Source of the DNA: Candidatus Omnitrophota bacterium
GTDB taxonomy: Bacteria > Omnitrophota > Gorgyraeia > 2-02-FULL-51-18
Direction: 5' to 3'
Length of the DNA: 64,000 nucleotides
NCBI GenBank assembly: GCA_945877765.1
Contig: CAMDWQ010000005.1
Span: 604 to 64,603 of the forward strand
How positions within the stretch are numbered: the first letter of the stretch is position 1; each line of letters opens with the position of its first letter. Positions 10,802 to 53,900 of this stretch are shown here, in pieces. Below the pieces are notes generated by a model. That model saw only the letters and a list, made by a program, of their open reading frames with translations, was not told where the DNA came from and did not search any database. The position numbers and the translations under genes were made by a program.

Positions 10802-10869
10802 AAAATGCCCTCCGTTTAGGAGTTTACTATATTACTAGTTATTGTCAAGAGGGCACTCGCTCCGCCCAC

Positions 10870-10950
10870 GTCATTCCCGAGAGTTTTAATCGGGAATCAA
10901 ACCAGGGTATGATCCCCGATAAATAATCTCGGGGATGACACTGGGATGAC
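10870..10950. repeat. MITE family A copy (both hairpin halves)
   Basis: 'gtcattcccgagagttttaatcgggaatcaaacc' + 'gggtatgatccccgataaataatctcggggatgacactgggatgac'. Confidence 0.55.
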
Positions 10951-14966: not shown

Positions 14967-17900
14967 TTAAGCCGACCAGTCAGTTTGCAAAGACAGACGA
15001 ATCGCCGACGCCATATCGTTTACCAACGCCGTGATAGGCGGCAGGAGAATCCATAGAAGACTCTCCCCTTCAATGATTTCCTGAGTCTGGATAGCGTAGA
15101 ATTTTGCCGAATCAATTTTGGGCTTTCCAAGTCTTAGGCTATTTAAAAAATTAATCAGCCCGCTCTCCCCGATAGCTTGAATCATCTGCTCTTTGCCCTG
15201 TCCGGCATGCGCTGACCACAGCCCCGCCAAAGTTTCCGCTTCTAAAAAAGCGATTCCCGTGTTGGGCAAGCCTTCGACGAGAAGTGCCACCACCGAATCA
15301 CTCTTTAGTTTTTCAATCTTGTCCCCTGCTTGGCTTAAGACAATCCGCGAGACAACCGCGCCCTCGGGTCTTTGGGTCAACACTTGACCCATTCTTGCTT
15401 TTGACTGAATCCTAGCAAGCCTTCTCTGCGCCGTTAACCCCATCTTGCCGGGAAGCTGGTCAATATTGAGAAGAATGTACTGGTTACCGCGAGAGCGCGC
15501 CACGCGGTCAAATATGGCCTTCAGCAGCACTTTCTTAGCCTTCAAATCAAGCACCGAGCCAAATCGAGGATCCACCAGCTGTGCCAAATCAATCTCAACA
15601 AAACCGAACCCCGTCCCGATCGCCCCAGGTACCTGCTCGTTCCACATTTTTTGCATGCGCTCAATCAGAAATCCCTGCCCCCGCCGAGCGCTTTGGCGGC
15701 CTTGGTCTTTTTTGAGAGTTTCCTTTATCATCCGCATTTCCTCGGGACTAATCCTAAAAAGAATCTTAGCTCCCACTCTGACTTGCAGCCCTTGAGCACT
15801 TTTGCGTAGATTGAAAATGGGAATTACTCCGCTTTCCTGCTGGACAGCCAAGCGCCCCCACATAGATTTCTTTCCATGCATAGGCATAGGCAGAGACATC
15901 TCTGTAAAAAAAGTTTTGAGGTCTTGGAGCGTTTGGGAATTGGTGGGGAGGGAATCCTCCATCTCGATTTTTTTATTTTCTGCCAGCCGCGCCGCCTGAT
16001 CCGCTCCGTCATTCTGAGGCGCTGCAGGCGATGAAGAATCCAAGCGATGAGATTCGTTGGCATCAGCCAATTTTTCCACTCGAGAAGCATACCTTGAGAT
16101 GTGCTGTCCTGGTTGTACGCCATATTGATCTTCTAGCGCATCTTTCAAAAGATCTTCTGCGATTTTTAAAATCTCGCCCTCATCGACATTTCCCCAAATA
16201 CGCTTGGAAATCAACTCGATTTCTTCACCAGAATGAAATGCCCCCGAAAGTGTATTCGCTTTAGTGGCATCATATTTCAAACGCTCTGAATGCATTCCAG
16301 TTGCCGGTCCTGCGTGGCGTAAGAATAATTGAATGCCACACTTTTGAAGGATAATTTTCGCCACGTAAGCAATATTTTGCGATGGCGCCATATGAATACC
16401 TTGGGAGTGCTTTATTTTCATGGTAATAATTTTTTCATTACCCTCGGATGCCGCCAACCGTGCGGCCGTCATTCCCCCCTGACCAAGCAAGTTCAAAGCT
16501 TTTGTGTATCGCACCAGCTGAGCTACGACTTGACTATTTTTATATTCAATGATGTTGCGCGAATGGGCCCATTTGTAATCCTGAAGCATTCCCGCCTCTG
16601 AGTTGAAAAAATAGGATTTTCTGCGATCTAAAAATAACTGCCAGGCGGAGATTTTTTCTGGCGGCTCAAATCCTTTTAACCGCTGGTTGAGGCTTTCCTC
16701 ATACCCGCCTTTGCCGGCGCGATAAAAAGTGATTTTCTGCCCCAATAAGGGGTAATCCTTACTATCTTTTAATACATCTGCAATAATGGGACGAGAGAGA
16801 CGTTGAATAAAATCCTCGTTGTATTTAAAAAAGGAGGTGTATTGCTGATGGAGATCATTCGGCATGCCAGAGATTGCGGGGTAAACGAAATTCTCATAAC
16901 TAATACCGCCATTAAAAAATGGGATTAACTGAGACCACACGCGGAATAAGCTCATCTGGACCGCAGATATCACCGTGTCCAGCTCATCGGTGATTTTCGA
17001 ATCTAGATCATCTCTAGGAATTGTGCTCAATGATTCATATTGTTTTTTTAAAAACAGCATGTTGGCGTGCATGATAATAAGGTCATGATGCGAATCACTG
17101 CTGAAACTATTAAAATGCACGCCCTGTAAAAAATGATAGAGCGCAATCATTTTGACCGCCTGCAAACGGCGCCTAAATAAAGGCGGATCCGTCGCATCTG
17201 ACTGCATGATTTCAGGCGAAAATAAATTTGGAAGCTGTAAAGACATCTTAATAAATCCTTCGTTCGCCAAAGGATCTTGAACGTTTTTCAAATCTCCCCC
17301 CAAGATCAAAAAACGTTTAAGCACCAGTCCAAAGAGAGATTCAAAATCCAATTTAAGCTTCGCATTAGAACCGTTGTTGTAAACTTCTATGGCCTCTTCC
17401 ATCACAACAACCTCGTGCTCAGAAAGAGGCTCGCTCATGGATTTTACGATGTACGCCATGGCAACCGCCTCCAGAGACTCAAGCGCGGTCCTTGCGCTCC
17501 AATCGCCTTGGTCCAAGATTACCGTCCCCTGATTACGCAACCTGTCCAGCGCCGAAGAGACCTGAGATGGAAAATTTTTATATTCGGAACCATCAAACAG
17601 TCGGTTGACAGCAAAAACCACCTCGCTGTACCCTCGAGCCGCATCGTGTGGTGACCCAACAGCGGCTGTTTGCCAACTCTGTATCAGGGAAAGCAAAGAA
17701 GACCTGCTTATCTGGGGATCATGGCCCGCCAACCGCGCCGCCGCAGCCGTGGAACCGGTGTCAGTCCTTGACATTTGACTTTCTGGGCTTTCCACCAACC
17801 CTTCGGCCCGCCTCAGGGCAAGCCGCGCACCAGAGCGGTGCTTATTTTCCAGTTGAATCAAGTGATTGAGCACTTCTGCCGTACTCGAGGCATCTCCCTG

Positions 17901-20900
17901 CCACTCTCCATCCGCAGAATGAAGCGCCCAACCCTCTGTGGTCTTCTCAATAGTTATATCGGTAGTGCTCGCTGGATTAGGTACGTCTTCGACACGTTTG
18001 ATGCCCGGTATCGCCCAGAAAATCTCGCGCCGAAGCGGGCGCGCATCCCTAGGTTCCCCGATCAATGCAACAGACTCGATGGTTGTTTCCCATGTGGGGT
18101 CGCTCACAAAAATTTTATTCCGTTCAGAGGCGGGAATCAAATCAGCGGGATCAATATAAATTATTTTATTTTCGACAGCCATTTGGTTGATAATGTCATA
18201 ATTCGGGTCTTGAAGACGATCGGCTTCCGCCTCATCCCGAAAATAAAAAATTGCCTGATGCAGGTGGGGAGCAATAATCGATTTGTTCCGGGATGGTCCA
18301 ATCTTACCGATGTTTTTTCCGTGACGGACACTATCACCTTGCTTAAGTCCCTCGGCTGGCACAATGTGCGTATAGACAGTATAAAGCTTCCTGCCGTAAA
18401 CGGTTGTTTCCATGATGACGGTGCTTTGCATGTCGTCTTCAAAGATCCATTTCACCTTGCCGTCGATCAAAGAAAAAACAGGTCGTCCTGATCCCGCCGC
18501 TTCCACCTTACCATCAACCGATTCAATGACCGCCAAATCAATACCGCCATGCTTCTGTTCCCGGTGCGACTTAAAACGGCTCACCTCTCGCCACCAACAT
18601 CCCAGATCCCCAAATTTCATTCCCTCGCGCAAAATAAAACGTCGAGCACCCCACTCCTTGGCCGTTTTTCTATAGGAAGATAAAACCATTCTGCTTAACT
18701 GACGGTGGGCCTTTTTCAGAAATATTTTATCCTGAGACTTCTCCCGGCTGTGGAGGTCTGTTTGGCCGACCATAACAGTCTCCTGCACTGCCGAAGGCTG
18801 TTCCGCCGGCTGATTTGGTTGCACCGCGCTTATATCTACTTCGGAACCGGTGTCAGTCCTTGACATTTGACTTACTGGTTTTTTCGCCAGCCTCGCGGCG
18901 GAAAGATCTCGTGTGGACGCATCAGTCAACGCCTCGATGAGCAAAGAAAATGGATTGTCTTGTTTAATAAGAATACCCCGCACCGTTAAAAAAGTTAGCT
19001 TTAGTTGATCTGTTATCTCAAAAGAGACCCTATTCTCCTCTTGTGGACGATCGTCCGAAACAACACTTGTTATTAGGTACCACATCTCTCCCTCGTTATT
19101 GAGGCACTGTTTAAAAATATTTGCTACCGATTCTTGTTTCGCATCAAAAAAATATCCATCAACAAACGATCGAAGCATCGCTACAAAATCCTCTGATGTA
19201 TCATGAACTAAAATCGTATGTAGAACCCTGCTAACATCCAGAAAACGAAGCCTGGCGGATCCTAGTGCGTCCGCCGATTCGGGCACATTCCAAACCGTGT
19301 TCAAATCTCTCAAAACAACATGCCACTTTTTCTCCTCGCTGCCCTGCATCAGCCCGGTATTAGCAAAAGTGGGGTAGCGATGAATATATCCATTTCGATG
19401 AAGCTCTCTCAGAGCCTTGCCATACTCATAAAATATTTTTTGGACTGATTCTTTGTTCTTTATGGGATTAAAAAAATCTCTGTCAGAGGCTTTTGAATCA
19501 GACGAGTTGTGCTTAAGATCACCAATAACTCCCTGATCTGTCACCGATAGCCGGAAATCTTCGCCGGTCATGCCGGCAGCGACCCAAGCATATTGTTGTG
19601 TGGAATCATGGCTACTTTCCATGAGTGCCCAGCCCAGAGCTTTATCGACCGGCAAGCTAAGCTGCGAGAGCTTGCGCATCAGCTCATCTTCGAGCTCTGC
19701 CCCCTTGGGATTTAAAGTACCGCTATAATTTTGCCCAGCAAATGTCGTTGTTGTAAATCGACCTTGATTATCGATGGTTGGTGGAAATTTTACAAAACCA
19801 GCCTCCCCCAAATAAGGCACTAACTTATTAGCCTCATCCACCCGCGGCCTTACACCCTTAAAACGGATATATAAAATCCCATCTATGGGAGAATCTAACT
19901 TCAAATAGATCGTTCGACCTTCCTCTGGCCAGAAATATTCACGATGTTGAATAAAAATTTTTCCTTGGTGTAAGGCTTGGGCCTGTAAAATATCCGCGGT
20001 ACTTACCAATGCCCCGGACATTATCTTTTCCGCGATAGCTTTTTCCTCGTGGCTCAAAGAGTCAAAAAATTTTGTATCACGGTGGTCTTTGACTATTTTA
20101 AAAGTGGCTTTTGCCAGCCGCGCGCCGGAGCGGCGTTTAGAAGAGATGGGGTCAGTCCTTAAGATTTTACTTTCTGAGTTTCCCGCCAACCGCGCCGCCT
20201 GAGGCCTAGTCTTTCCTTCAAGCTTATTTCGGATTGCCTGATAATCCGAATCATTCTGACCATTGTCTCTGATAATCAGCCTCTGATTACCAGGCAATGT
20301 GATCACCATAAATCGATTCGCTAACTCATTGGCAATGTGAACCTTCACTACATACGTCTGCAAGACATCTGGCGTCGTCACAAGGTACTCTTTGTAAGCA
20401 GGTGCTTGCGAGACATTCTTCGCATCAAAGCCATCTCCGGAACGAATCAGTCGGACAAAATCATGAACAAACGCCGGATCTTTTTTTTGGATGTTTCCGT
20501 TGATAGCATAGACTCTGGAACTGGTGTCAGTCCTTGACATTTGACTTCCCGAGTTTTCCGCTAACCCTTCGACCCGGCTCAGGGCTAGCCGCGCTGCAGC
20601 CCCACTGTTATCTTTCGAAGACTCACCACCCGTACTGCTTGGAATGAGCCCAGTAATCCAGGTAGCGACTTTGATGATGTTATCCGCAACGACTTTATCC
20701 CCATAATAAGAGGACAAAAGGCCTGCGGGTTCGCCGAAGCCCGGTACTCTACCGACCCATTTTTGAACCGAAAGTCTTATTTTTAAAATCACCAGAGGCT
20801 TCAGTTGTTTGAAAGACGCCAGAATCTGCAGAGGTACCCCGATAACATTAACAATGGGTAGAACACTAAGATAGGCCCAGCCGAATTTTTGCTCGGGGTG

Positions 20901-23900
20901 ACGGAACGCAAATATATACGTGGTCACAAACCGGTACGCTGAGCTGATCGACCACGAGATAAGAAGCCACTTCCAGTTGTTGCCCACGACACCCATGCCC
21001 ACCCCCAACAGATCGGAAGTCCATGTGAATATCTTTGGAAGCAAATGAAGCGAATAAAGAAGCAAATAGACATCGATCCCCGTGCTTGATTCCTTGAGAC
21101 CAGCAAGCTCATTTTTCTGATCCTCAGAAATCAACCCATGTGAATACGCTTTATCGATATCGTCAAAAAATACGCGATTGATAAAATTCATGCGGAATTT
21201 TTCCATAAAAATAAATTTCCCAATGTCAAAAGGAGCTTTGATTATCCGGAAAAGTGTTTTGACTGCCCAGCGGAGCACGCGCCAAGAAAAAGTGGCGGTT
21301 GCTGTGACGGCACTACGCATGAATTTGAATGGAAGTGTTAAAGAGTGCCCAACCATATAAGCTAAATAAGCAGACCTAGGCTCTCTAAATTCTCGGGCTT
21401 GTTCGGGACTGATGCGCTTGGTGATTTCCCAATAATCAATGTTATTTTTTCTTGAGAGCTTGAGAAATTCAGCAAGGTCAAACCCTTTTGCCCAAAACTG
21501 TGGGGAACGATCCAAGAAAGTCTCCCTAAGAGCACGATAATCTTTTATCCAAGCGGCTAGGTGAGCAGACTCCCCCGGTTCCAGTAAATCGGGGTGGGCT
21601 TTCATATATTCCTCAAAAAGATCCATATTCATTAGATGAAAAGTATCCGGATAATTCTCGGCTTGTTTCGCGTGATCAGTGGCGTCCCTGAATTGCTTAA
21701 AAAAGAAAAATGGAAACGTGTAGCCCCACAGCAGAGCCGATATATTTCTCTCCGTATCCACCCAAAGCATAAGGCCGCTTGCCAAACTCCGTTTGATGTT
21801 GGGAAATGAAAACCACGCCATCCCCGGCGCGCCGCTGTCATTGATAGCGACTTGAGAAATCAAGTTACCCGCACCGGCCTCCGCCAACGGCTGTTTAAGC
21901 TGGCGCATAAGCTCCACCTGTTCATCAAACTTTCCATCCTTCTCAGTTGACAACCGCAGATAAGACCCGCGCAGTTCGACGTAGTCCATCACCAGTGCCC
22001 AAGAGCCGGCTTGAGGAACCCAAGCATAGGCCTCGCGCGGAATGATGCCCTCAAAATTTTTACCTTTTAGAGAGCGAACGATCATGCTCAAAAATTTATA
22101 ATTATACAAAAGCGCCCTAGCGACCTCTTCATACCGCTGGGGACCAAACCCGCCTTGAAAGGTTAAAAAATATTGCACGTCCCGGATGATTCTTTTAAGC
22201 CCCCGCGCCCGAAATATCTTGAGGACCTTTATCTCTTTGTCTGGACCTTCCACTTTCCACACTTCACTAAAACCGCCGCCATCCCCCAGGCGAGATTTCA
22301 CCAGGTAGCTCTTATTGCCGAGACTATTCCCGGAAAAGTCCTTAAGCTCTAAGTTAATACTTAATTCTGGATACAGCCCATTTTTTGTATTTTCCGCCAA
22401 TCGCGCCGCGGTAGGCGTTAAGTGCCAAGCTTGATTTCCACTCGGTCGGGGTGTATATTCAGGGCGTAAAGGAGTTTTCCAATGAAAAAAAGCCTCATCT
22501 CCAGCGATCCCGATTTTTGCGCGGGGAAACTTTGCTTCACTGCGACGCGTATCCCTGTTTATATGGTTCTTGAGCTTCTCGAAGCGGGTGAATCTTGGAA
22601 AAAGATCCTCAAAAGCTACCCAAGTCTGAATGAGGCTCACATCCACGCCGCGCTTCACACGGCGGCTGAAGTCTTGAAAAATCAGGAATACCATTCTTTT
22701 GCCTAAATCTGACATTTCCTGGAAACTTTTTGGAGATGAAAATATCAGCTTTGACGTCATAAAATTTCTAAAGAAAAAGGGGTATAATGTCATTGCCTGC
22801 CCAAAAAGTCTAAAAAATGGCGAATTATTCCATCGGCTAATCAAAGAGAGACGAATACTTTTCACCCACGACAAGGACTTTCTGGACTCTGGGCGGTATC
22901 CTGCCTCTAAAACAGACGGCATTATATTCATCCCGATCCACCCCGCCACAGACAAAAATGTAATTCCCGCACTCCATAGCATGCTGGTAAAAATATCGCC
23001 GAGAGAAATATCTGGGCGGTTGGTTATTTTGTCAATGGATGGTTTCACCATCCAGCCGGACTCAGCAGACTTCGCTTCCTGATTCTCAGCTAGCCACGTA
23101 GTCTGATTTTTCTCCTCTATCCCATTGTCACGGCCTGTCTTCACCCCCAACGCCTGAGTAAGCTCCGCAATTTTCCCCGCCGTCAGAGTTCTGAGGAGCA
23201 TATTAGTTTTGGGTGTGAAGGAATTTAATACGGGAAGTGGTGAGTGGCTTTTTTGGCTTAAGAGAATTTGTTCGTATCTTTTGAGATTGGTCTCTTGCAA
23301 CACTTGAGGAGTCAGGGAAATGTAGGAGATGTTTTTCTGCTTGAGTAGGTATTTAAGATTGGGGGTGTGGTAGCCTCCGGTGATTAGAATGTACTCGTGT
23401 GCGGCGTGGGTAATGGTTTTTGTAGGTGCGGCGGGTCCGGGTCGCAAGCCCTCGCTTGCGACACTTCGCTTCGGCATGGATAGCCTTCGCGTCGTCACCT
23501 GTCGGACTCCGCTGTGCTCATGTAATTCTTCATTCCGCGCAGCGGAGGCCTCCCCTCCGGCGCCACCCGCATGTGCTTTGTTTGCTGTACCTGTCGCCGG
23601 GTGTGGGGTACTTTCTATCACCTCCAGCATATTGGAGATAAAGGCTTGGTCTCTTTGGTAGGTTAATTCATAGAAGTCTTCGCAATAACGAACCATGTCT
23701 TGGTAGCCATTTTCTAGGAATAAGGCTTTGTCATAATTGTTTTTTTGATTCATGAGCTTTTGGTTGAGGAAACCTGTGATTTTTTGGATACTCGTGTTTT
23801 GTTTATCTTTTCTATAAGACTCATACTCTTGGGGAGTTAGTTGAAGTAGGAATAATTTTTTTAGGAAGTCGATGTTGTTAGAAGCTTGAATTAGATTCTT

Positions 23901-25130
23901 TTCATCGGGGGTCACGATGAGAGAGTCGAGGATCTTTTGTTCTAGAAGCTTTTGTTCGTTTAGGATCTCTTGGGGGTTTAAGGACAATGAATATTTGAAA
24001 TAGGCTAGATACTTTTGAAGATGGGGATAGTTGCTATTGTCTTTTAGTTGATCCGATAGGAGAAAGAGGAAGGCTTTGTGGACTTGTTCGTCTTTGGATC
24101 TTGCGGCGTCTTGGAGCTCTTTTTGGGTTTGGGTGGAAAGAGAATTAATCAATAGGGCTTGTTCTTTTTGAGCTACTTCGAAGTTGATTTGTTTTTCTTT
24201 TTGGTTTAGGTCTTCTAGGAGTTGTATGTTTTTAAAGCCTTTAAGTTCTAGCTTTTGGGCTTCTTGAAAGAGAAGGCTTAGGTATTCTCGCAAAGAGAGC
24301 TCGCCTTTTTGGTGAGCTTTAAGTTTTTGGTTAAAGGCTAGAAGGTAGGGGTTTAAAAGAGTGGGCTCCAAGGTGTGAATTGTGTTTTCAACTTGTGCTA
24401 GATAATCGCTGTATTTTTCCCTTCGTTTGGCACTTCGCCGGTAAAGCTCCACCGACTTGGCGTAGAGAGACATGTCTTCTACTCCCCAGAGCGTCATGGG
24501 GTGATTGCTGGTTAGGTCTAGATACTCGGTGCCTTGGAGTTTGGCCTGGAGAAGAAAGGATTTGGCGACTTGTTGTCTTTTTTCAAGGGAGGCGTATTTT
24601 CTTAAGAAAGAGAGAGATTCGTTGCCGCTTCCAGCTTCTAGGAAGATGTAGTTTGAGAGATTCTTTTTCTGGCTATAGAGGATATCTAAGAGCTTCGCCT
24701 CATTGAGTTGTCCTGAGTTGTTGGTGTGAGCATCTTGAATTAGTATTACACATGCCGGGTGGCGCCGGAGGGGAGGCCTCCGCCGCGCGGAGTGAACATT
24801 TACACGAGCACGGCGGAGTACCGCAGGTGACAGGCCCCGGCCACTCCGTAGCACGCTTTTGGTTGGAGCAACCCAAGCATCTTCGATAGTTGCTACTGAT
24901 TCAGGGATTTGGGGAAGAAAGTCTTTGGCCCACTTTAGACTTTTTTGCTTTTCCCCTCCATCCTCAATCCTCCATCCTCTATCCGCCTTTAATAGTTCAG
25001 GAGCTGCATAAGAAAACTCTTGAATTAAAAGGCATAAAATTAGCGTGAGCGAGAGGCTCTTAAGAAAGACCGTTCGGGTCGCTTTATTAGCGAGGGCGGT
25101 GTTATTTGTCATAAGTTCATGTGTCAACAT
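14967..25130 (-). CDS. giant modular protein (3387 aa): signal/anchor, a ~600-aa N-module shared with the second giant ORF, a kinase-like module, an M23 peptidase module and further uncharacterised modules separated by AARLA-type junction motifs
   Basis: Single uninterrupted 10,164-nt ORF. N-terminal hydrophobic segment. The N-module aligns with ORF 47988..55961 ('IQDAHTN', 'LEAGSGNESLSFLRKYASLEKRQQVA', 'GGYHT'). Gly-loop 'LGDGGGFSEVWKVE..KVLKI'. M23 signature 'HGGIDLA...YTVYTHI...GDSVRHGKNIGKIGPSRN...PHLH' at about 18230..18560. Confidence 0.7.
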   Translation of the reverse strand: MLTHELMTNNTALANKATRTVFLKSLSLTLILCLLIQEFSYAAPELLKADRGWRIEDGGEKQKSLKWAKDFLPQIPESVATIEDAWVAPTKSVLRSGRGLSPAVLRRARVNVHSARRRPPLRRHPACVILIQDAHTNNSGQLNEAKLLDILYSQKKNLSNYIFLEAGSGNESLSFLRKYASLEKRQQVAKSFLLQAKLQGTEYLDLTSNHPMTLWGVEDMSLYAKSVELYRRSAKRREKYSDYLAQVENTIHTLEPTLLNPYLLAFNQKLKAHQKGELSLREYLSLLFQEAQKLELKGFKNIQLLEDLNQKEKQINFEVAQKEQALLINSLSTQTQKELQDAARSKDEQVHKAFLFLLSDQLKDNSNYPHLQKYLAYFKYSLSLNPQEILNEQKLLEQKILDSLIVTPDEKNLIQASNNIDFLKKLFLLQLTPQEYESYRKDKQNTSIQKITGFLNQKLMNQKNNYDKALFLENGYQDMVRYCEDFYELTYQRDQAFISNMLEVIESTPHPATGTANKAHAGGAGGEASAARNEELHEHSGVRQVTTRRLSMPKRSVASEGLRPGPAAPTKTITHAAHEYILITGGYHTPNLKYLLKQKNISYISLTPQVLQETNLKRYEQILLSQKSHSPLPVLNSFTPKTNMLLRTLTAGKIAELTQALGVKTGRDNGIEEKNQTTWLAENQEAKSAESGWMVKPSIDKITNRPDISLGDIFTSMLWSAGITFLSVAGWIGMNIMPSVLEAGYRPESRKSLSWVKSIRLSLISRWNNSPFFRLFGQAMTLYPFFFRNFMTSKLIFSSPKSFQEMSDLGKRMVFLIFQDFSRRVKRGVDVSLIQTWVAFEDLFPRFTRFEKLKNHINRDTRRSEAKFPRAKIGIAGDEAFFHWKTPLRPEYTPRPSGNQAWHLTPTAARLAENTKNGLYPELSINLELKDFSGNSLGNKSYLVKSRLGDGGGFSEVWKVEGPDKEIKVLKIFRARGLKRIIRDVQYFLTFQGGFGPQRYEEVARALLYNYKFLSMIVRSLKGKNFEGIIPREAYAWVPQAGSWALVMDYVELRGSYLRLSTEKDGKFDEQVELMRQLKQPLAEAGAGNLISQVAINDSGAPGMAWFSFPNIKRSLASGLMLWVDTERNISALLWGYTFPFFFFKQFRDATDHAKQAENYPDTFHLMNMDLFEEYMKAHPDLLEPGESAHLAAWIKDYRALRETFLDRSPQFWAKGFDLAEFLKLSRKNNIDYWEITKRISPEQAREFREPRSAYLAYMVGHSLTLPFKFMRSAVTATATFSWRVLRWAVKTLFRIIKAPFDIGKFIFMEKFRMNFINRVFFDDIDKAYSHGLISEDQKNELAGLKESSTGIDVYLLLYSLHLLPKIFTWTSDLLGVGMGVVGNNWKWLLISWSISSAYRFVTTYIFAFRHPEQKFGWAYLSVLPIVNVIGVPLQILASFKQLKPLVILKIRLSVQKWVGRVPGFGEPAGLLSSYYGDKVVADNIIKVATWITGLIPSSTGGESSKDNSGAAARLALSRVEGLAENSGSQMSRTDTSSRVYAINGNIQKKDPAFVHDFVRLIRSGDGFDAKNVSQAPAYKEYLVTTPDVLQTYVVKVHIANELANRFMVITLPGNQRLIIRDNGQNDSDYQAIRNKLEGKTRPQAARLAGNSESKILRTDPISSKRRSGARLAKATFKIVKDHRDTKFFDSLSHEEKAIAEKIMSGALVSTADILQAQALHQGKIFIQHREYFWPEEGRTIYLKLDSPIDGILYIRFKGVRPRVDEANKLVPYLGEAGFVKFPPTIDNQGRFTTTTFAGQNYSGTLNPKGAELEDELMRKLSQLSLPVDKALGWALMESSHDSTQQYAWVAAGMTGEDFRLSVTDQGVIGDLKHNSSDSKASDRDFFNPIKNKESVQKIFYEYGKALRELHRNGYIHRYPTFANTGLMQGSEEKKWHVVLRDLNTVWNVPESADALGSARLRFLDVSRVLHTILVHDTSEDFVAMLRSFVDGYFFDAKQESVANIFKQCLNNEGEMWYLITSVVSDDRPQEENRVSFEITDQLKLTFLTVRGILIKQDNPFSLLIEALTDASTRDLSAARLAKKPVSQMSRTDTGSEVDISAVQPNQPAEQPSAVQETVMVGQTDLHSREKSQDKIFLKKAHRQLSRMVLSSYRKTAKEWGARRFILREGMKFGDLGCWWREVSRFKSHREQKHGGIDLAVIESVDGKVEAAGSGRPVFSLIDGKVKWIFEDDMQSTVIMETTVYGRKLYTVYTHIVPAEGLKQGDSVRHGKNIGKIGPSRNKSIIAPHLHQAIFYFRDEAEADRLQDPNYDIINQMAVENKIIYIDPADLIPASERNKIFVSDPTWETTIESVALIGEPRDARPLRREIFWAIPGIKRVEDVPNPASTTDITIEKTTEGWALHSADGEWQGDASSTAEVLNHLIQLENKHRSGARLALRRAEGLVESPESQMSRTDTGSTAAAARLAGHDPQISRSSLLSLIQSWQTAAVGSPHDAARGYSEVVFAVNRLFDGSEYKNFPSQVSSALDRLRNQGTVILDQGDWSARTALESLEAVAMAYIVKSMSEPLSEHEVVVMEEAIEVYNNGSNAKLKLDFESLFGLVLKRFLILGGDLKNVQDPLANEGFIKMSLQLPNLFSPEIMQSDATDPPLFRRRLQAVKMIALYHFLQGVHFNSFSSDSHHDLIIMHANMLFLKKQYESLSTIPRDDLDSKITDELDTVISAVQMSLFRVWSQLIPFFNGGISYENFVYPAISGMPNDLHQQYTSFFKYNEDFIQRLSRPIIADVLKDSKDYPLLGQKITFYRAGKGGYEESLNQRLKGFEPPEKISAWQLFLDRRKSYFFNSEAGMLQDYKWAHSRNIIEYKNSQVVAQLVRYTKALNLLGQGGMTAARLAASEGNEKIITMKIKHSQGIHMAPSQNIAYVAKIILQKCGIQLFLRHAGPATGMHSERLKYDATKANTLSGAFHSGEEIELISKRIWGNVDEGEILKIAEDLLKDALEDQYGVQPGQHISRYASRVEKLADANESHRLDSSSPAAPQNDGADQAARLAENKKIEMEDSLPTNSQTLQDLKTFFTEMSLPMPMHGKKSMWGRLAVQQESGVIPIFNLRKSAQGLQVRVGAKILFRISPEEMRMIKETLKKDQGRQSARRGQGFLIERMQKMWNEQVPGAIGTGFGFVEIDLAQLVDPRFGSVLDLKAKKVLLKAIFDRVARSRGNQYILLNIDQLPGKMGLTAQRRLARIQSKARMGQVLTQRPEGAVVSRIVLSQAGDKIEKLKSDSVVALLVEGLPNTGIAFLEAETLAGLWSAHAGQGKEQMIQAIGESGLINFLNSLRLGKPKIDSAKFYAIQTQEIIEGESLLWILLPPITALVNDMASAIRLSLQTDWSA
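22482..22706 (+). CDS. DUF433 protein (antitoxin-like partner of DUF5615), nested antisense inside the giant ORF
   Basis: AAAGGAG ribosome-binding site 8 nt upstream. 'ATRIPVYMVLELLEAGESWKKILKSYPSLNEAHIHAAL' matches the DUF433 family. Confidence 0.55.
   Translation: MKKSLISSDPDFCAGKLCFTATRIPVYMVLELLEAGESWKKILKSYPSLNEAHIHAALHTAAEVLKNQEYHSFA
22699..23082 (+). CDS. DUF5615 PIN-like protein (toxin-like), nested antisense inside the giant ORF
   Basis: Overlaps the DUF433 gene by 8 nt (typical TA coupling). 127 aa. DUF433-DUF5615 is a known gene pair. Confidence 0.5.
   Translation: MPKSDISWKLFGDENISFDVIKFLKKKGYNVIACPKSLKNGELFHRLIKERRILFTHDKDFLDSGRYPASKTDGIIFIPIHPATDKNVIPALHSMLVKISPREISGRLVILSMDGFTIQPDSADFAS
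23485..23572. repeat. MITE family C copy, in-frame inside the giant ORF (inverted relative to the copy at 24754)
   Basis: Reverse complement matches the 24754..24845 and 63585..63680 elements ('gcggaggcctcccctccggcgccaccc'). Translated within the giant protein as '...GGAGGEASAARNEELHEHSGVRQVTT...'. Confidence 0.55.
24754..24845. repeat. MITE family C copy, in-frame inside the giant ORF
   Basis: 'gccgggtggcgccggaggggaggcctccgccgcgcggagtgaacatttacacgagcacggcggagtaccgcaggtgacagg'. Encodes '...NVHSARRRPPLRRHPA...' in the giant protein. Confidence 0.55.
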
Positions 25131-33281: not shown

Positions 33282-33297
33282 TTATTACTCCCCACTT

Positions 33298-33364
33298 GTC
33301 ATTCCCGCGAAGGCGGGAATCAAACCCAGACACGATCCCCGATTAAAGATTTCGGGGATGACAC
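33298..33364. repeat. MITE family A copy between the batA and batB genes
   Basis: 'gtcattcccgcgaaggcgggaatcaaacccagacacgatccccgattaaagatttcggggatgacac'. Confidence 0.55.
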
Positions 33365-33373
33365 AATTAAAAA

Positions 33374-36207: not shown

Positions 36208-36214
36208 AAACCCT

Positions 36215-36432
36215 ACAACCCCTCCGCCTTCGGCACCTCCCCTTCGAAAGGGGAGGAAATCGTGCTGTCTTTCCCCTCCCTTTTAAAACAGAAGAAAATC
36301 AAGCACCTTTTCCCCTCCTTTCGAAGGAGGGGTGGCGCCGAAGGCGACGGGGTGGTTGACACGTTCAACACCATGTCTAAACCCCTGCAACCCCTCCGCC
36401 TCCGGCACCTCCCCTTCGAAATGGGAGGAAAA
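36215..36432. repeat. MITE family B ('CCCCTCCGCCTCCGGCACCTCCCCTTCGAAAGGGGAGG ... CCCCTCCTTTCGAAGGAGGGGTGGCGCCGAAGGCGACGGGGTGGTTGA'), 1.5 copies inserted between the moxR and DUF58 genes
   Basis: Nearly identical to 62418..62540. Imperfect terminal inverted repeats and internal palindromes. Confidence 0.55.
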
Positions 36433-36436
36433 TTTT

Positions 36437-37432
36437 CTACGGAACCTCAATCTGGTCAAATACCATTTTCACCAAATCTTCCGAAGTTTTTTGCTCAGCT
36501 TCGGCTTCATACGTGGGAATTACTCGGTGGCGCAGCACATCCAGTCCGATGGCTTTCACGTCATCCGGCACCACATAGCCGCGGCCTTTGAGAAAAGCAT
36601 GGGCTTTCGATGCAATATTTAGATAAATCGTCGCACGCGGTGACGCGCCGTAAAGCACAAGCGCTTTCATCCCTTTTATTTTATAGGCTTCGGGGTCCCG
36701 CGTCGCGCATATGATATTGACGATATAATCTTTGATTTTGTCATCGATATAAATCTCTTTAACCACCTCGCGGGCGCGCAAGATATCCTCGGGTGTTGCC
36801 ACGGGCCTAATCACCGCGGGCTTGTGTCCTGCCATGCGATCCATGATTTCCAACTCTTCCTTCTTGTTGGGATAATTAATTTTAAGTTTAAACATAAAAC
36901 GATCTACCTGCGCTTCAGGAAGCGCGTAGGTTCCTTCCTGCTCAATCGGATTTTGAGTCGCCATGACCATAAAAAGATCCCCCAGCGAATAAGTCTGCCC
37001 GCCCAGCGTGATCTGTCTTTCCTGCATCGCTTCCAAAAGAGCGCTTTGAACCTTCGCCGGCGCGCGATTAATTTCATCCGCGAGAATTATATTAGAAAAA
37101 AGAGGGCCTTTTTTAGTCACAAACTCGCCAGTCTTCGCATTGTAAATCTGCGTCCCCAACAAATCCGCCGGCAAAAGATCCGGAGTAAACTGTATCCTCT
37201 GAAAACCCGTGCTGATCGCCTGCGAGAGCGTTTTTACAGAAAGCGTTTTTGCCAGCCCCGGCACACCCTCCAACAGCACGTGCCCATCCGCCAAAAGACT
37301 CAACAAAAGCCTCTCCACCAGATAATTTTGTCCAACAATGACTTTGCCGATTTCCGCCTGCAAAGCACGGATCAACACACTCTCTTTTTCAACTTTTTGG
37401 GCGACTTCTTTGATATCAACGCTCATAATCAA
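36437..37432 (-). CDS. MoxR-family AAA+ ATPase
   Basis: 'LLEGVPGLAKT' Walker A and full MoxR-like length. First gene of the Bat-type operon. Confidence 0.85.
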   Translation of the reverse strand: MIMSVDIKEVAQKVEKESVLIRALQAEIGKVIVGQNYLVERLLLSLLADGHVLLEGVPGLAKTLSVKTLSQAISTGFQRIQFTPDLLPADLLGTQIYNAKTGEFVTKKGPLFSNIILADEINRAPAKVQSALLEAMQERQITLGGQTYSLGDLFMVMATQNPIEQEGTYALPEAQVDRFMFKLKINYPNKKEELEIMDRMAGHKPAVIRPVATPEDILRAREVVKEIYIDDKIKDYIVNIICATRDPEAYKIKGMKALVLYGASPRATIYLNIASKAHAFLKGRGYVVPDDVKAIGLDVLRHRVIPTYEAEAEQKTSEDLVKMVFDQIEVP

Positions 37433-47418: not shown

Positions 47419-47991
47419 ATGCCTAGGCCATCAAGAATGATTTACGAGGAAGCGTTTTATCATGTATTTAACCGTGGAGTTAATAAAATGCCTATATTTT
47501 TTGATGAATTAGATAATAAAATATTTATAAAAATATTGCGTCATGAAGCATTGGAAATGAATGTTCGTGTGTTTGCTTATTGTCTAATGCCGAACCATTA
47601 TCATTTATTCATCCAAACTAAAAATGCTAATTTGAATATATTCATGCAAAAATTGGCAGGTCGCTATGTCCAGTTAGTTAATTTCCGGCATAGCCGGGTT
47701 GGCGCATTGTTTCAAGGTAGATATCAAAATCGTCTGGTGGATATCGACTCGTACGCACTGAGGTTAACTAGGTATATTCATCTGAATCCGGTGATCGCTG
47801 GTTACGCCAAAAGGCCGCAGGACTATCCATGGTCCAGTTACAACAGTTATCGAGACAACCAAAATTCTTGGATATCGACTGACTTACCGCTAGAGCTTTT
47901 AGGTGGAAAAAATAAAGCTTCGTTTAGGCAATTTGAGAAGTTCCATGAAACGGTGCCAGAGGGGTCTGACCCCTATGGTACCGTGGTTTAG
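47419..47991 (+). CDS. REP-associated tyrosine transposase (RAYT, IS200/IS605-like Y1 transposase)
   Basis: HuH motif 'HYHLF'. 'YIHLNPV' family signature. 190 aa. The 3' end reads through another REP copy (47953..47982). Confidence 0.75.
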   Translation: MPRPSRMIYEEAFYHVFNRGVNKMPIFFDELDNKIFIKILRHEALEMNVRVFAYCLMPNHYHLFIQTKNANLNIFMQKLAGRYVQLVNFRHSRVGALFQGRYQNRLVDIDSYALRLTRYIHLNPVIAGYAKRPQDYPWSSYNSYRDNQNSWISTDLPLELLGGKNKASFRQFEKFHETVPEGSDPYGTVV

Positions 47992-50900
47992 GCGGCCTGG
48001 AGAAATTGGCGCTGCTGACTGGCGAGAAAACGCAGGGCCGTGCTGACGTCGACCTGGGTGAGCGCCCGCAAAGCCAATCGTGCGGCTAGTTGAAGCAACG
48101 CCCGGCCCAAGAGGACTTCCGTGAGTTCTTGGGTTTCGGGACGCAGTCCTGAAAGCGTCGCCCAGGCATCGTCAAACGGCTGAGGACGGTTTTTGGGATC
48201 CTTCAGACGGCCCAAAATGATGGCTAACTGCATGAAGCTAAATGATAACACGTCGCCATCGGCCACTTCTTTCACCGGCACGCGAAGCTCTTCTTGGAGA
48301 GCGGGCCTCTGCGGCGGACCAACACGCACCATCTCGGCTCCCACCAAGTCCTCGGGGGCAGATTCCAGAAAGAGACTACTATCCCAGCGGATCCAAGTAG
48401 CGGCATTGACGCCGACGGGAACCAAATAGACGTTTCGTCCCCATTCTTTCGATTTTATCGTATGTAAATACAGGATAAACGCTTCAAGGTACGCAGGACT
48501 TGCCATGTCCAGCCAGGCGGTGTTGATTTCTAAAATCACAGGCTTGGTGTGATCCACAATCACCGAATCCAAGAGCGAGTTGACGCGCCCTTCCACCGAA
48601 GAGGAAAGACTACTCAGCGCACTGATACTGTCCGCACCACGGCCACGACTGCGAATCAACTGCTCATACTGCCCGCGAGTTACCGTCAGAATAGATTTAC
48701 TGTAGCCACGAAGCCAAAGCTCGGCTTCCCCCTTCTTATTCATCCTGACATTTAATAGGGATGAATCTCGACCCCTAGCTGTCTCTACGGGGAAATCCGC
48801 CTCATTTTTTAATTGTGCTATTTCCCAGGTAGAAACCTTAAAAAGGTTCCTATTTTTTCGAATCAAACGGCGTAGATAGCTTTGTGACCGCGTAAGCGAA
48901 GACGCTGCACGGGCTCGAGGCCGACTGCTGGCCGACGACGCATTTTGCAAGCGTGATCGTGAAACATAAGGCTCGATAATAGATAAGCCGGCCAGTCGGG
49001 CGGCAACTGACGGAGAGACAAAAATAACAGTCTGCGTGAATTCATATGTTCCCCGCGGTGGCACTTTTATATAAAAAAACATCGCATCAGGCTTATTTCT
49101 GGTTAATTCTAATTCCTGGTCTCCGATATTCAGAATGCGCGTGGTAACGGTTGCATAATCATCCGTTAATGTAAACGTCCTATCAATCGTAAAATCTTGA
49201 TACTGGCGAGTCTCCAGCTCTAAATTGGAATTCATTGAAGTGGAAAGCTCCTCAAGGCGCATCTTAACAAATGCTGTGCCGTTGACACGGTTAGCGTCTA
49301 TCATCTTCCATTGCCCATTAAGCAGAGTTGGATATGCCCAAAAATGTCCATCCAATGTTTGGCCATTAACAGCGGTAGTATTCCAAAAAACAGGCATTGT
49401 CGCTCGAGCTGGGATCCGGAGCGAGCTCCTTCCCGATAGACTTATAAGCTTAATCCAATCTCTCCCATCACGCTTTTCAACCGGCAATACTCTCTTAGCT
49501 ATCGCAGATAAAATATTTCTTGCTAACTCACTATCTGTTTTTAGTGAGAGCTGCGTCGAAGATGCTTCTGGATTATTATCTGTTGGATTTGAAAACGATA
49601 AAAATTTGTGCATTTTTTTACCCTCTCTTTGAAAATCAAATTCAAGAGAGACAATCATTTGTTTTCCCCGCTGTCCGTGAGGGATACGAATGGTCAAGAG
49701 CCCATCCGTAAAATCGAAACTATCAAAAACGTATACATTGTTTGTAGATCCTGTAGCGCGTACGCCATGAACAAGCTCTCTAAAATTAGTGAAACGGCCA
49801 ATAGCTGCGATCAGCTCGTCACTAGTTATGCTCTGGACTTCATCATCAACCCATGCCGCCAACCGCGCAGCAACCGGAACCGCTGGAACCTGATAAGTCG
49901 CTTCACTTTGAAAATAACTGGTAGGCGCCGTCGGATTCATTTTGGAACCATAGGCAACCGCAAACAGATTCCCTTCTTTGGACTCATACATTTTGTCGCC
50001 ACTATCCATCGCGATTACTTTAAATCTAAATATGCCAGGTCGCTTAGCTTTTAGATTTAGAACATAGCGAAAGATGCCATCCTGGGAAAAATTCGGATCC
50101 CGAACCATATCAAATTCCGACTCAACCTCACGCTCATCCTCAGTATATTTCAACGTCACCTTCACAGAAGCAGCTGCTTCGGCCACATACGCTTCAATTA
50201 AAAATGGGGTTATCTCTGTATTGGCCGTATCCGTAAACCGATGCATTTCCTCGCGATCGTTTTCACTGTCGGGACTTGTGCGAACGATAAGATCTTCTTT
50301 TTTTTTCTCTAGATCTTTTTCTGAAAGCTCTTCCCTCTTGGCGAGCAATTTCTTAATCAGTGCTACGGCGCGTGTTACTTCCACGGGCACCGCCTGGCCA
50401 TCTTCGGTCACCGGATTTCCCTGTAAAGCGGCTCTGAGATTTTCAACAGTGATAGGTAACTTGTTTTCCCATTGGCCGGATTTTTTCCCCGCTACGTTTA
50501 TTTTGTTCTCCGGTCCATACGCTCCGAGGTCAAGCCAGTTGGGAACAAACATGAGCGAATCCGACATAAAGCTAAGCTCAAGCAATGCCTCTTGCACAGC
50601 GGAAGTCAATTCGCCTGACTCGGCTATGGAAGGGTCCAACCCCGTCATTTCAGGAAATTGCGCTCGGGCGATTTCTAAAAATGCTCTTCTTGTGCCTGTG
50701 TCGGTTTCATTCCAGTCACTGCGCATGGACTCTGAGTCATGAAGACTATAAGTCCTAAAAGCAACCGGCTGTGAGGAACGTGGATCATGAACATTTTCAC
50801 CATTCTCACTGGGCATTTTTCCCCACATGGAGCATACATAATCAAAAGCACCTAGATGAGGCTTTTTGAGCTGTTCCGACGTAAAACGCGCCAATGTCTC

Positions 50901-53900
50901 AAAGATCACCGACGTCCCCGCTTTTTTGGCCCGATCCAGAAGCTCTGAAAAAAGTTCCTCTCCCGGACCGTAATCGTAGGCAGCGACACGCAAGTTATCG
51001 TCGGCCTGGGGACCCTCGCCTTCGAAAAGATACTGAACAATTCCATTATCTATATCTTTATCAACCAAATCTCTTTTTCCATAACGATGGTCTGTCAGCC
51101 GGACATAATTCCACACCGGCCCCTGCCCGTAAACTTTTGGCTCCACCACATCATCCACACGGACCCATGGCGCCTCCAATCCTTGATACTTGTCATCTGC
51201 TTTTTTAGCCTCGCGCGCGACGTACATCATCGCGTACTCGGCCAAATGATCTTCGTCTGGATAAGCCAAGTCCACGAGCCTTTTGACCAAGGGATTGGCG
51301 GAAATTAATTCCGATGTTTTCAGCGCGTGTGCAAAAATCGCGGTAACTTTGGCGGCGGTCTGCTTCTTAATATTCTCCGCCTCAACTGGCTTTTGACTAG
51401 CCTCGGCCTTGGCGGCATCAACCATTGATCGCACTTGGTCATAGACCCCTAGACTCCCAAGAGTAAACTGACTTTCACCATCTTCCATATACAAATACGC
51501 CAAATAAAACCCAAGCACATGATCCAAGCGTATCGTGGTCGCCATTTTCTGGTAGTACTCAAAAAGCTTGATCATGTACGGCAGAGTATCCGGATGAGAC
51601 CAATCATAAGCAAAAAACTGCCAGTATTGACCAATGGGGTGCTTTTCCTCCGGTAGAGAGCCGTGCGTAAAAGGCCTTTGGTAACCATTTTCTTTTTTAA
51701 GACCGAAAATCTGGGGATTCATCCACACGTCAGCCCCGCCTCGGGCGAAAGGAATATCCATGGCGACTTGAATGCCATTTTCCTTAGCAACCGCCGCATA
51801 CTGATCAAATTGATCCCGCGCGACAAACTGGATAAACGAGCGAAGTTCAATCTCGCCTGCATATTTATTTTTCAAGCGCGCAATTTCATCCGCATTTCTA
51901 TCACTAATGAGTTCCTCCCAAGTTCTCCAATCCCAGCCATTAAATGGATTTTTACTTAGATGTTCTTCTTTGAGAATAAGAAATAGCATATGATCCGGTA
52001 GCCAGTCCGCGTGGTTGGCCTTAAACTCATCAAATTTTTGCTTGGTCTGGCTCTCTTTAAACCCAGCCGAATTTTTTAAAGAATCCCAAATAATTTCAAG
52101 GGCTTCTTTATTAAGCGCAATCACTTGGTCATGCTGAATCGTTTCGCTGTCGCTGAGGCTTTGAATTTGCTGAGCATGCGCTGTAACAAACTCGTCATAG
52201 GCTCTAAGATCCAGATCGCCGTTGAAAGATTCTTTTAGGGCGGCTACCAACATCGGAACGCTGATATAACGAAGGTCAATCGCTCGAGAACTATCCTCCG
52301 AATACGGCGAATTAAATGCCGCCGACCATATCAGTGGAAGGATCTGATGCATCGTCAATCCCATTTCTTTAAAAATAGGGATCATTTGAATAGCGGTCTG
52401 GAAATTTCCTATTCCCCAATCACCCTTGTGACGCAGATGGTGAAACGGCATGAAAGACCCTGTGATTCTCTTGCCGTATTCGACGGGAGAAATAAAATCT
52501 TTCGCTAGGGGCCTATCAACAACCTCAATCGCCGCCAAGCGCGCGCCATCAGCTTTCACCAATCCCGAATCGCGCAAGATGTCTTCAGGTTTAATGGCAG
52601 AGCCCATCATCATCAAATGCGCGCCTGTAACCCAAGGATAATCCCGACGAATTTTTTGGATTTGCTCAACAGCCTTGCGTCGACTAAATTTTTTGAAATT
52701 GTCATGTTTTTCAGTAGTATCTTTCTTCCACTCCGCTTCGTATTCACGCACAAGCCTAAAAGCCTCTTCATTTTTTCTCCAATTAATTCCCGTCAAATAC
52801 ATCCAAAATCGGATTCCCCATGGAGAAGCAAAAGCGGTAATACCCACATGAACTTTGATGTCTTTTGTGCGATCGTCCTCGTGAATTGCTTCCAAGTACT
52901 GTTCGAATGGCTCCCATAAGATTGGGGGCTGCGTAAATATGCCCTGAACATTTTTATGAGCCAGTCTTTCAGCGGTTTCCGCTGTAGGATATAAATTTGG
53001 ATTTGCAGCAGCATATAGTGAGATATTGTTAGCAGAGGGATTCATCAAATCTCTTGCCATTGAAGCTACGCTTTTCGATGAAACGGGCCATATTTCTGAG
53101 CCTGCCAAAAGATTTTTAAATAAACGTTGAGCTAACCCTCCTCCCGTGACTACAAATAATCCAATAATGTTTTGGTTTTCAGCGGCTAAGGAGATTACAG
53201 CTTCAAGACGCTTTATCAAACTATTTCTTCGACGCGCATTCGCCGCTATAGTCACAATGGTATTGAATTTGCTTCCGGCGGCCAACTCGAGAGTATCATC
53301 CGTTTTCACCAATCGCTTTCTGTAATTTTTAAAAACCTTCCAAAAGTCTAAGTTTCCGTTCATCTGGCTTTGATAAAATACATATAGATCTCTATCTTTC
53401 CACCAGGATTCAATTCCTTTTATGAAGAAAACGTGCTTAAGAATCGAGTCAACCACATGTGCCCATAAAAATTCAAGAGCTTGAAAACGTGCCGAGTAAG
53501 GTAGGTCTGTTAAAGTAAGTGCATACACGCCGAGTTTTTTTAATCGGTCCGGGCTACTGCTATTGAGCCCATTAGAACTCTCGACGGTGATAATAAAGCT
53601 ACTGTTTGCCTCCGCCAACCGCGCGCCCTCATCGCGAGCTTCCCTATGCTCGCGTCGCCATAGATTTCGCCTTGCTTTGTCGGTAGCCCTATTAAAATGA
53701 GGCCCCCCACCTTTCGATTTAGCCCCTACAAGTAATTCCGGCTCCCCTGCCAAAAATTTGCTCGCCATTTCGCGTGCAGAAATACGAGCTTCCTCTTTCA
53801 AATCTGATCCTGGTTGCTCTAATATTTTCAGTGTATTAAAAATGTTTATTTTTCCAGAATCATCAGCGCGCTCAAAAACTCGTTCGAGCATAATCAAAGC

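Follow-up and report, generated by a model that had tools for sequence, protein, structure and literature searches.

We analysed a 64-kb window of bacterial chromosome (contig CAMDWQ010000005.1; ~47% GC, nearly every gene on the minus strand) and found that its two giant open reading frames (ORFs), hereafter G1 (3387 aa; 14967..25130, minus strand) and G2 (2657 aa; 47988..55961, minus strand), are punctuated by a strictly conserved pentapeptide, G-A-R-L-A or A-A-R-L-A, that marks the boundaries between their modules. The explanation that we favour, to which we give about even odds (roughly 50%), is that both are Sec-exported modular polyproteins in which the pentapeptide is a cleavage site and the cutter is most likely their own N-terminal domain (N-domain). 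Each chain would comprise four parts, namely a signal peptide, an N-domain of ~500 aa, unrelated cargo modules of ~140-500 aa and a C-terminal domain. After export by Sec, the TIKI/TraB-like N-domain would cut at G-A-R-L/A in cis or in trans, another protease being the less likely enzyme, and cutting would free the individual enzymes together with short spacer peptides. The scissile bond most likely follows Leu or Met, with G-A-R-L at P4 to P1 and Ala at P1', since Leu, Met and some Phe or Ala are tolerated at this position whereas beta-branched Ile and Val are excluded; the alternative would have Arg as P1. The combination of an invariant head domain, an invariant junction code and hypervariable cargo suggests an enzyme and its substrate in one chain.

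A strict junction motif in two giant proteins and their relatives

The region 17700-20610, singled out in a preliminary description of this DNA, is the middle of G1, whose parts follow in the order predicted signal peptide, TIKI/TraB-like N-domain, modules delimited by nine junction motifs and conserved C-terminal domain. At least eight copies of [AG]ARLA had been noted in G1, and the count proves to be nine. The nine copies, all on the minus strand, are AARLA at aa 908-912 (22395..22409); AARLA at aa 1512-1516 (20583..20597), which opens an 84-nt repeat copy; AARLA at aa 1645-1649 (20184..20198) and GARLA at aa 1669-1673 (20112..20126), which form a double site 24 aa apart; AARLA at aa 2078-2082 (18885..18899), the upstream boundary of a peptidase M23 module; GARLA at aa 2434-2438 (17817..17831), its downstream boundary and the first half of a 30-aa double site completed by AARLA at aa 2464-2468 (17727..17741); AARLA at aa 2889-2893 (16452..16466); and AARLA at aa 3046-3050 (15981..15995), the boundary of the C-terminal domain. 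G2, with a G1-like architecture, holds the six copies ascribed to it, again on the minus strand: GARLA at aa 562-566 (54264..54278), aa 779-783 (53613..53627) and aa 1139-1143 (52533..52547, upstream boundary of a GH77 module), and AARLA at aa 2031-2035 (49857..49871, downstream boundary of GH77), aa 2320-2324 (48990..49004, boundary of the C-terminal domain) and aa 2626 (LAARLAL; 48072..48086), the last lying within the C-terminal domain, 32 aa from the C-terminus. Besides these, an AARLG variant at aa 552-556 (54294..54308, minus strand) is the first site past the N-domain of G2, and its Arg is aligned in 96% of family members.

The motif stands far above compositional expectation in both proteins. 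Residue shuffles (5,000 per protein) gave mean counts of 0.022 for G1 and 0.020 for G2 with a maximum of 1-2, so that 15 copies are seen against ~0.04 expected in the two together. In a six-frame scan of the whole 64-kb window all 15 copies were in frame within G1 or G2, and none was found elsewhere in any frame. The closest relative for which DNA was available (L001; N-domain 61% identical) has seven in-frame copies and none elsewhere in its locus, and another locus (L007) has 26 copies and none in its other genes. G1 and G2 are moderately rich in Ala, Leu and Arg, which counts as no support for a chance product of composition; with a shuffle mean of 0.02 against nine and six observed, and with the signal repeated in 150 relatives and 30 metagenome loci, the probability of such an origin is negligible.

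Homology between G1 and G2 is confined to the first ~520 residues (33% identity). We therefore searched with a profile of this domain (alignment from G1/G2-type N-domains) against 1.84 billion representatives (50% identity clusters) and recovered 8,389 representatives at E <= 0.001, 3,847 of them at E <= 1e-30, with G1 itself among the matches (P0004). These proteins are mostly 2,000-7,000 aa long, and the profile match lies at the extreme N-terminus in nearly all. The motif accompanies this domain across the family: the suggested search of other genomes for giant proteins with the same motif yielded relatives numbering in the thousands. No Pfam or NCBIfam model matches the family and no description of it was found in the searchable literature. 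Judged from their sequences, both are members of a large family of giant modular bacterial proteins that is so far undescribed and predicted to be exported.

We further took motif statistics on the best 150 family matches (152 proteins including G1 and G2). The 150 relatives contain 477 copies of [AG]ARLA in 423,000 residues, and ARLA (515) and GARL (513) are the top 4-mers of all; DAHTN, which occurs once per protein, is found 134 times. The general form of the motif is [GA]-[AS]-R-[LM]-[AS] (GARLA 368, AARLA 109, GARMA 79, GARLS 78). Of 387 occurrences of GA(.)LA, 371 have Arg in the middle and one has Lys; position 4 of GAR(.)A holds Leu in 371 cases and Met in 79, followed by Ala (16), Phe (11), Ile (4) and Val (1). 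Only small residues stand on both sides of the R-L core, and the flanks are free of information apart from a preference for a small residue at -1 and, in some cases, Pro at -2. This strictness (Arg; Leu or Met; Lys, Ile and Val shut out) resembles the specificity of a protease for its substrate and argues for a cleavage site.

Two further features point the same way. Lineage variants of the motif (GTRL, GSRL, SRMT and the Met type) tend to be uniform within a protein (0.376 versus 0.25 in shuffles), and Met-type (GARMA) proteins have at least six independent origins, with most junctions of a protein changed each time; such private, within-protein-uniform variants would reflect private specificity. 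At one N-domain position, R122 (G2 numbering, 12 residues past the invariant E110), Lys is found in 7 of 11 independent Met-type lineages, compared with Arg in 86% of Leu-type members and Lys in 14% of Leu-type lineages, a comparison that ignores phylogeny; R122 may be a specificity determinant for the Leu or Met type of motif. In addition, the 152-protein set contains 61 motif pairs that lie 5-45 aa apart and flank short spacer peptides, and double sites with spacers, as known from viral polyproteins, likewise favour processing. Cutting at both sites of a pair, if it occurs, could set such a spacer free as a peptide. A 20-aa spacer, GARLAxTRHSTASPAVxxPxG[AS]RLA, is common to four otherwise different proteins (P0015, P0031, P0035 and P0037).

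Several family members can occur in one genome. G1 and G2 are separated by 23 kb on one strand, and a 143-kb metagenome contig (Ga0247727_10000187) carries two further members (L014 and L027). Genes of the window also occur in ENA samples in the range ERZ27280197 to ERZ27280287. The only relative with a taxon label comes from a metagenome-assembled genome of an 'uncultured Planctomycetia bacterium'. A G2 ortholog with 97% identity is present in another strain (L006; GCA_947444795.1, contig CANFBX010000091.1), where the ORF is broken after G2 aa ~1112 into ORFs of 823 aa and 883 aa, away from any motif; this split is probably a frameshift or an assembly error.

Modules, linkers and codons at the junctions

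The preliminary description had placed the motifs exactly at module boundaries, and this holds for all lines of evidence except the last G2 copy, which lies inside the C-terminal domain. Every Pfam domain seen (M23, GH77, PALP, Glucosamine_iso and HAD) falls wholly between motifs. Pfam matches M23 alone in G1 (aa 2211-2295; 18246..18500, minus strand) and the GH77 4-alpha-glucanotransferase alone in G2 (aa 1176-1836; 50454..52436, minus strand), and both are cargo modules bracketed as had been described, M23 by the motifs at aa 2078 and 2434 and GH77 by those at aa 1139 and 2031. In the relative P0141, the PALP, Glucosamine_iso and HAD domains each lie within a single inter-motif segment, and the cargo of relatives includes pyridoxal phosphate enzymes, sugar isomerases and HAD hydrolases. 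Between G2 and its ortholog L001, GH77 homology starts 13-17 aa past the motif upstream and stops ~20 aa short of the one downstream, and the modules other than GH77 differ.

These boundaries are also visible across the family. The first motif follows the N-domain after a median of 65 aa, and the median inter-motif spacing is 266 aa (interquartile range 139-500 aa). In family pairs compared outside the N-domain, 23-26% of the ends of BLAST high-scoring pairs fall within 10 aa of a motif (6% for random placement), and only 18% of these pairs span a motif (52% for random placement). In an average taken over 734 sites, the 5-10 residues either side of the motif have a hydrophobic fraction of 0.22 rather than 0.32 and twice the TOP-IDP disorder score, and both measures are back at background by ~15 residues. 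When linkers are set against folded domains in this way, hydropathy and disorder profiles place the motifs in linkers, and we conclude that the motif marks module boundaries in short hydrophilic linkers.

The cargo itself is hypervariable, and the junction stays constant. G1 and G2 modules outside the N-domain have almost no homolog among the 150 relatives; a word-indexed homology search with G1 aa 1500-2480 found nothing, G1 modules 1, 4 and 8 had no PDB sequence match, and Pfam scans of every module at E <= 1 gave no further relevant match. The 'kinase-like' module that had been described after TAARLAEN gained no support from these Pfam and PDB sequence searches, and an 'HPr-like' label for a G1 module was set aside on the same grounds. 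The M23 module had been proposed as the processing protease. It retains HxxxD and HxH as read from its sequence and is consistent with a cell-wall hydrolase carried as cargo. Since G2 and nearly all relatives have the motif without an M23 module, it is not a candidate for a general protease of the family; co-occurrence fails in P0067 (22 motifs) and P0141 (19 motifs), which lack M23, and the G1 M23 module has no homolog among the 150 relatives. No specific support emerged for a repeated sorting signal, another role that had been suggested; to our knowledge, none of the signal peptidase I A-x-A site, the lipobox, the LapG TAAG site, sortase or exosortase signals and the Tat motif fits G-A-R-L-A.

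The intragenic DNA repeats reported for G1 are real. An 84-nt unit occurs three times on the minus strand, as copy 1 (17750..17833, encoding GARLALRRAEGLVESPESQMSRTDTGS), copy 2 (18842..18925, 65% identity, encoding AARLAKKPVSQMSRTDTGS) and copy 3 (20516..20599, 86% identity, encoding AARLALSRVEGLAENSGSQMSRTDTSS), and a degenerate fourth copy of its 51-nt core lies at 20148..20198 (minus strand, encoding AARLAGNSESKILRTDP). The 84-nt repeats encode ARLA-(LxRxEGLxE)-xxSQMSRTDT[GS]S. The longer spacer is private to G1, with QMSR found three times in G1 and once in 151 other proteins. The general feature is thus the pentapeptide, and the SQMSRTDT spacer is one specific to G1.

We next consider the codons of the junctions, using 186 motif sites in 34 genes (G1 and G2 as well as L001, L007 and loci of the series L008-L044). 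Both CGN and AGR codons are used for Arg, five different codons serve for Leu, and Ser can stand in for Ala. The codon string preferred at the motif is GGC GCG CGG YTG GCG. CGG encodes the motif Arg at 100 of 186 sites (54%) versus 20% elsewhere, and it is used in only 1 of 34 cases at an invariant N-domain Arg. The motif Leu is YTG in 81% of cases, compared with 41-46% for other Leu codons before Ala, Ser or Thr (Fisher's test, 6e-6 in the initial set and 2e-14 when repeated on 30 independent metagenome loci), and position 4 is NTG at 157 of the 186 sites. Junction codons are locally homogeneous, to the point that a single 12-mer recurs at each of the last six L007 junctions. The synonymous-codon bias is compatible with recombination or gene conversion between junctions and also with a signal at the RNA level.

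Such a bias could mean that the primary function is at the nucleic-acid level, with the junction DNA (consensus GGCGCGCGGCTGGCG) acting as a module-shuffling cassette or microhomology, or as an RNA signal for internal NTG initiation or mRNA processing, and with the amino-acid motif being largely its translation. The restriction of the bias (CGG, YTG, NTG) to the motif, the local clustering of junction codons in L007, the 65-86% identity of the 84-nt junction repeats of G1, the different modules of the orthologs G2 and L001 with breakpoints at motifs, and the concerted Leu-to-Met switches within a protein would all suit this explanation. However, codon positions one and two are far more constrained than the third, and AGR codons for Arg are tolerated at 26 of 186 sites whereas Lys, one mutation off, is never seen. 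Similarly, Ala/Ser and Leu/Met swaps are allowed, but Val (GTG) occupies position 4 at 1 of 490 sites; the motif keeps to a single frame and strand and never occurs between genes, and 12-15 nt is short for homologous recombination. A primarily nucleic-acid-level function is thus distinctly improbable.

Selection at the protein level appears primary for conservation of the motif. The recombination scaffold of the preliminary description does not hold as the primary explanation because the amino-acid pattern is kept through synonymous and near-synonymous changes, in one frame and on one strand; the replicated codon bias leaves it a secondary and unproven place. An internal translation start at the motif NTG was also considered and is unlikely, given that there is no Shine-Dalgarno-like sequence, that GGA for Gly is under-used in the motif and so leaves no GGAG upstream of the NTG, and that 29 of the 186 sites carry Leu codons besides TTG and CTG.

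Constant ends and the candidate processing enzyme

Both proteins begin with a predicted Sec signal peptide, at aa 1-42 in G1 (25005..25130, minus strand; cut ...QEFSYA/AP) and aa 1-37 in G2 (55851..55961, minus strand; cut ...QEFALA/SP). Throughout the family the N-termini open with a basic n-region, continue with a hydrophobic h-region of 12-14 aa and close with [AS]-[FYW]-A followed by [AN]-P, which suggests that G1, G2 and their relatives are exported by Sec through a cleavable signal peptide.

The N-domain (G1 aa 43-640, 23211..25004; G2 aa 38-530, 54372..55850; both minus strand) is the universal part of the family. In G1 it carries DAHTN, LEAGSGN and GGYHT and has two in-frame repeat insertions; in G2 the invariant residues are D80, H82, E110, E163, R447, D448 and G472-G473-x-H475. 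Across 141 members, D80-x-H82, E110, E163, R447-D448 and G472-G473-x-H475 are 99-100% conserved. The TIKI-type signature of two His and two acidic residues (acid-x-His, Glu ~28 aa on, C-terminal GxxH) is present, and the spacing from H82 to E110 (28 aa) equals that from H3902 to E3930 in RRSP. An AlphaFold model of G2 aa 1-530, built from a 4-sequence alignment with a predicted local distance difference test score (pLDDT) of 73, shows a small alpha/beta core interrupted by a helical insert of ~300 aa, and the signature residues probably sit together in this fold. Eight of the top 17 hits of the N-domain are of the TIKI/TraB/ChaN/Ere kind, including RRSP, ChaN, two Ere-like proteins, EreC, HopBA1 and PMT, most of which have been assigned to the TIKI superfamily: PMT, HopBA1, Bcr135 and ChaN have been described as TIKI-superfamily relatives of RRSP, and a catalytic set of two His and two Glu has been reported (PMC6254334). 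The Pfam model PF04187 (Cofac_haem_bdg, ChaN/Tiki) matched only aa 438-478 and below its cut-off (E = 0.017, 15.6 versus 27.7 bits), PF01963 (TraB_PrgY_gumN) did not match, NCBIfam and PDB profile searches with the domain gave nothing, and Foldseek against the PDB with the model returned coiled-coil matches only. Taken together, resemblance of the N-domain to the TIKI/TraB/ChaN/Ere hydrolase fold is a prediction of moderate confidence.

The C-terminal domain (G1 aa 3050-3387, 14970..15983, ending ...DWSA; G2 aa 2324-2657, 47991..48992, ending ...FLQAA; both minus strand) is ~300 aa long and occurs in most members, with 81 of 113 long members linked by BLAST. A profile search with it found nothing in PDB or Pfam, and its alignment found no word-indexed homologs. 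The C-terminus of the 113 long members is -AA in 55 and -SA in 35 (QAA in 28), and the last motif copy lies 9-13 or 32 aa from it, the LAARLAL of G2 being one such copy.

These C-termini bear on the possibility that the motif is cut in trans by an enzyme unrelated to the N-domain, which would then have another job. Candidates would be a protease of a host or prey cell, or a housekeeping protease of the periplasm, for example one of the S41 C-terminal processing peptidases, which dock on non-polar C-termini. Tail-specific (Prc/Ctp) proteases recognise small non-polar C-termini, which suits the -AA and -SA ends and the nearby last motif of proteins that appear to be exported, and the TIKI fold assignment is only moderate. 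However, each protein has its own motif variants, and these have switched independently on many occasions, which a single conserved housekeeping enzyme would not readily explain. All other genes of the window and of L001 and L007 lack the motif, no conserved neighbouring gene was found in 22 loci, and the natural C-terminus [AS]-A matches the motif in its last residue only. Cutting by an unrelated enzyme is therefore unlikely. A dedicated partner gene beside the giant gene was rejected, since no conserved upstream neighbour was found in 22 loci.

Alternatively, the pentapeptide may be bound rather than cut, as a short linear motif of the linkers. Its binder could be the N- or C-terminal domain, in bead-on-string assembly or autoinhibition, or a chaperone or secretion component that handles the modules in turn. 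A compact motif in exposed linkers with information-free flanks would be expected of such a ligand, the apparently helical copy inside the C-terminal domain indicates that the sequence can occur in a folded part, and ChaN-type proteins of the TIKI fold bind and are not proteases. By contrast, conservation of the His and Glu residues of the putative active site reaches 99-100%, double sites around spacers of 5-45 aa have no obvious purpose in binding, and the exclusion of Lys, Ile and Val resembles the specificity of a pocket. We regard a purely binding role as improbable.

Inter-domain processing, as the preliminary description had proposed, fits every computational test run, and cleavage itself is what we infer from that fit. 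TIKI trims eight N-terminal residues off Wnt3a (PMC11237130). The absence of a conserved upstream partner gene in the 22 loci is another point in favour of an enzyme within the chain. Two parallels serve as leads rather than tests: the bond cut by TIKI in Wnt3a is presumably Leu/Ala, and the cysteine protease domain of MARTX toxins cuts inter-effector linkers after Leu. Several observations weigh against a self-processing polyprotein. The TIKI superfamily includes non-proteases (ChaN and the Ere esterases), and some members with few or no motifs still keep the putative catalytic residues. G1 has a hydrophobic stretch behind the N-domain, so that head domain and cargo could face opposite sides of the membrane. 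The codon bias is not predicted by a purely protein-level site, and AlphaFold on the motif-rich middle of G1, run with no alignment, gave an uninformative mean pLDDT of 35.

We also noted several mobile or repeated elements and other genes in the window. A dispersed element of ~78 nt occurs three times with 83% mean column identity (24756-24831, plus strand; 23494-23569, minus strand; 63589-63664, plus strand). Two copies lie in frame and in opposite orientations within the G1 N-domain, and the third is intergenic. The former are exactly the two insertions of G1 relative to G2, P0002 and P0003 (aa ~93-126 before DAHTN and aa ~508-575 before GGYHT), an in-frame insertion that can be likened to Rickettsia palindromic elements. 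An 81-nt REPIN-like double hairpin has six intergenic copies (10869-10949, 33292-33372, 37557-37637, 44751-44831, 56078-56158 and 57158-57238), and an ORF for an IS200-like Y1 transposase (47419-47991, plus strand; Pfam Y1_Tnp, 8.5e-10) abuts the 3' end of G2; together, the hairpins and the transposase may form a REP/RAYT system. A second repeat family is found at 36210-36454 and 62415-62525. The genes identified in the window include glpK, ilvD, panE, queC, rlmH, a batA-D/moxR operon and a histidine kinase, and no rRNA was found in the 64 kb.

Significance and relation to known systems

Giant multi-enzyme proteins are turning up in numbers in uncultured bacteria, and the literature asks whether they act as a single chain or are cut, and where. 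For one large family, the motif provides a set of module boundaries that can be read from sequence together with a candidate enzyme. With it, structure prediction and annotation can start from domain-sized pieces into which thousands of 'hypothetical' giant ORFs are divided in silico, and a candidate substrate motif becomes available for a relative of the TIKI/RRSP endopeptidases that is bacterial and chromosomal. The question of cleavage can be reduced to a single expression construct and a few point mutants. If the codon-level conservation of the junctions is functional, they would be a rare example of selection acting on one short element through protein and nucleic acid alike. A bolder proposal, which we hold to be rather doubtful, is a widespread 'operon in a protein', in which dozens of unrelated enzymes leave the cell through Sec in a single chain, a built-in TIKI/TraB-like endopeptidase separates them at a private pentapeptide code, and a 15-nt element doubles as protease site and recombination site, the latter as a cassette boundary for module shuffling within and between giant genes.

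Among known systems, the Omnitrophota giants ('Archaeovorins' and dockerin-type proteins) are similar in that they are exported or membrane-associated and tile many unrelated enzyme domains, whereas members of the present family are far shorter (2.6-7 thousand aa versus 30-147 thousand aa), and no dockerin, C39 or SecA domain was detected by Pfam in G1, G2, P0067 or P0141. Post-translational cleavage of those giants is suspected by their authors, who report that the cleavage points are not known (10.1101/2023.11.21.568195; 10.64898/2026.06.07.730766). If the motif or its variants extend to these proteins, they would supply the missing cleavage map. Within the TIKI/TraB/PrgY/ChaN/erythromycin-esterase superfamily, the N-domain is set apart by scores below the thresholds of the hidden Markov models, by its helical insert of ~300 aa and by its fusion to thousands of residues of cargo. 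The gingipains RgpA and Kgp of Porphyromonas are secreted multi-domain precursors with a protease domain of their own that cuts the chain after Arg or Lys at sites between the domains; unlike the present family, they have a few adhesin domains in place of a variable string of enzymes, a cysteine protease of another fold and no pentapeptide consensus.

The closest parallels in logic are the MARTX toxins of Vibrio and relatives and the viral polyproteins. MARTX toxins are likewise giant secreted proteins with conserved termini and variable, shuffled effector modules, and their in-built protease is reported to free the modules by cutting inter-module linkers (PMC6254334). The family nevertheless differs from them, since Pfam found neither RTX repeats nor Peptidase_C80 in G1 and G2, the N-terminus is of the Sec type rather than a C-terminal type I signal being used, the candidate protease is TIKI/TraB-like and most of the cargo is enzymes of a metabolic type. 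The protease of MARTX toxins cuts behind a Leu that precedes a small residue in a loose linker, whereas the junction of the family is a strict pentapeptide. Viral polyproteins (picornavirus 3C, alphavirus nsP2 and coronavirus Mpro systems) share one ORF for many units, a strict junction consensus, double sites with spacers and a protease in the same chain, which in our case is predicted. In contrast to these, the genes of the family are chromosomal and bacterial, lie amid housekeeping genes and encode modules that are unrelated enzymes varying between close relatives. The family matches the logic of both MARTX toxins and viral polyproteins while dispensing with every defining component of either.

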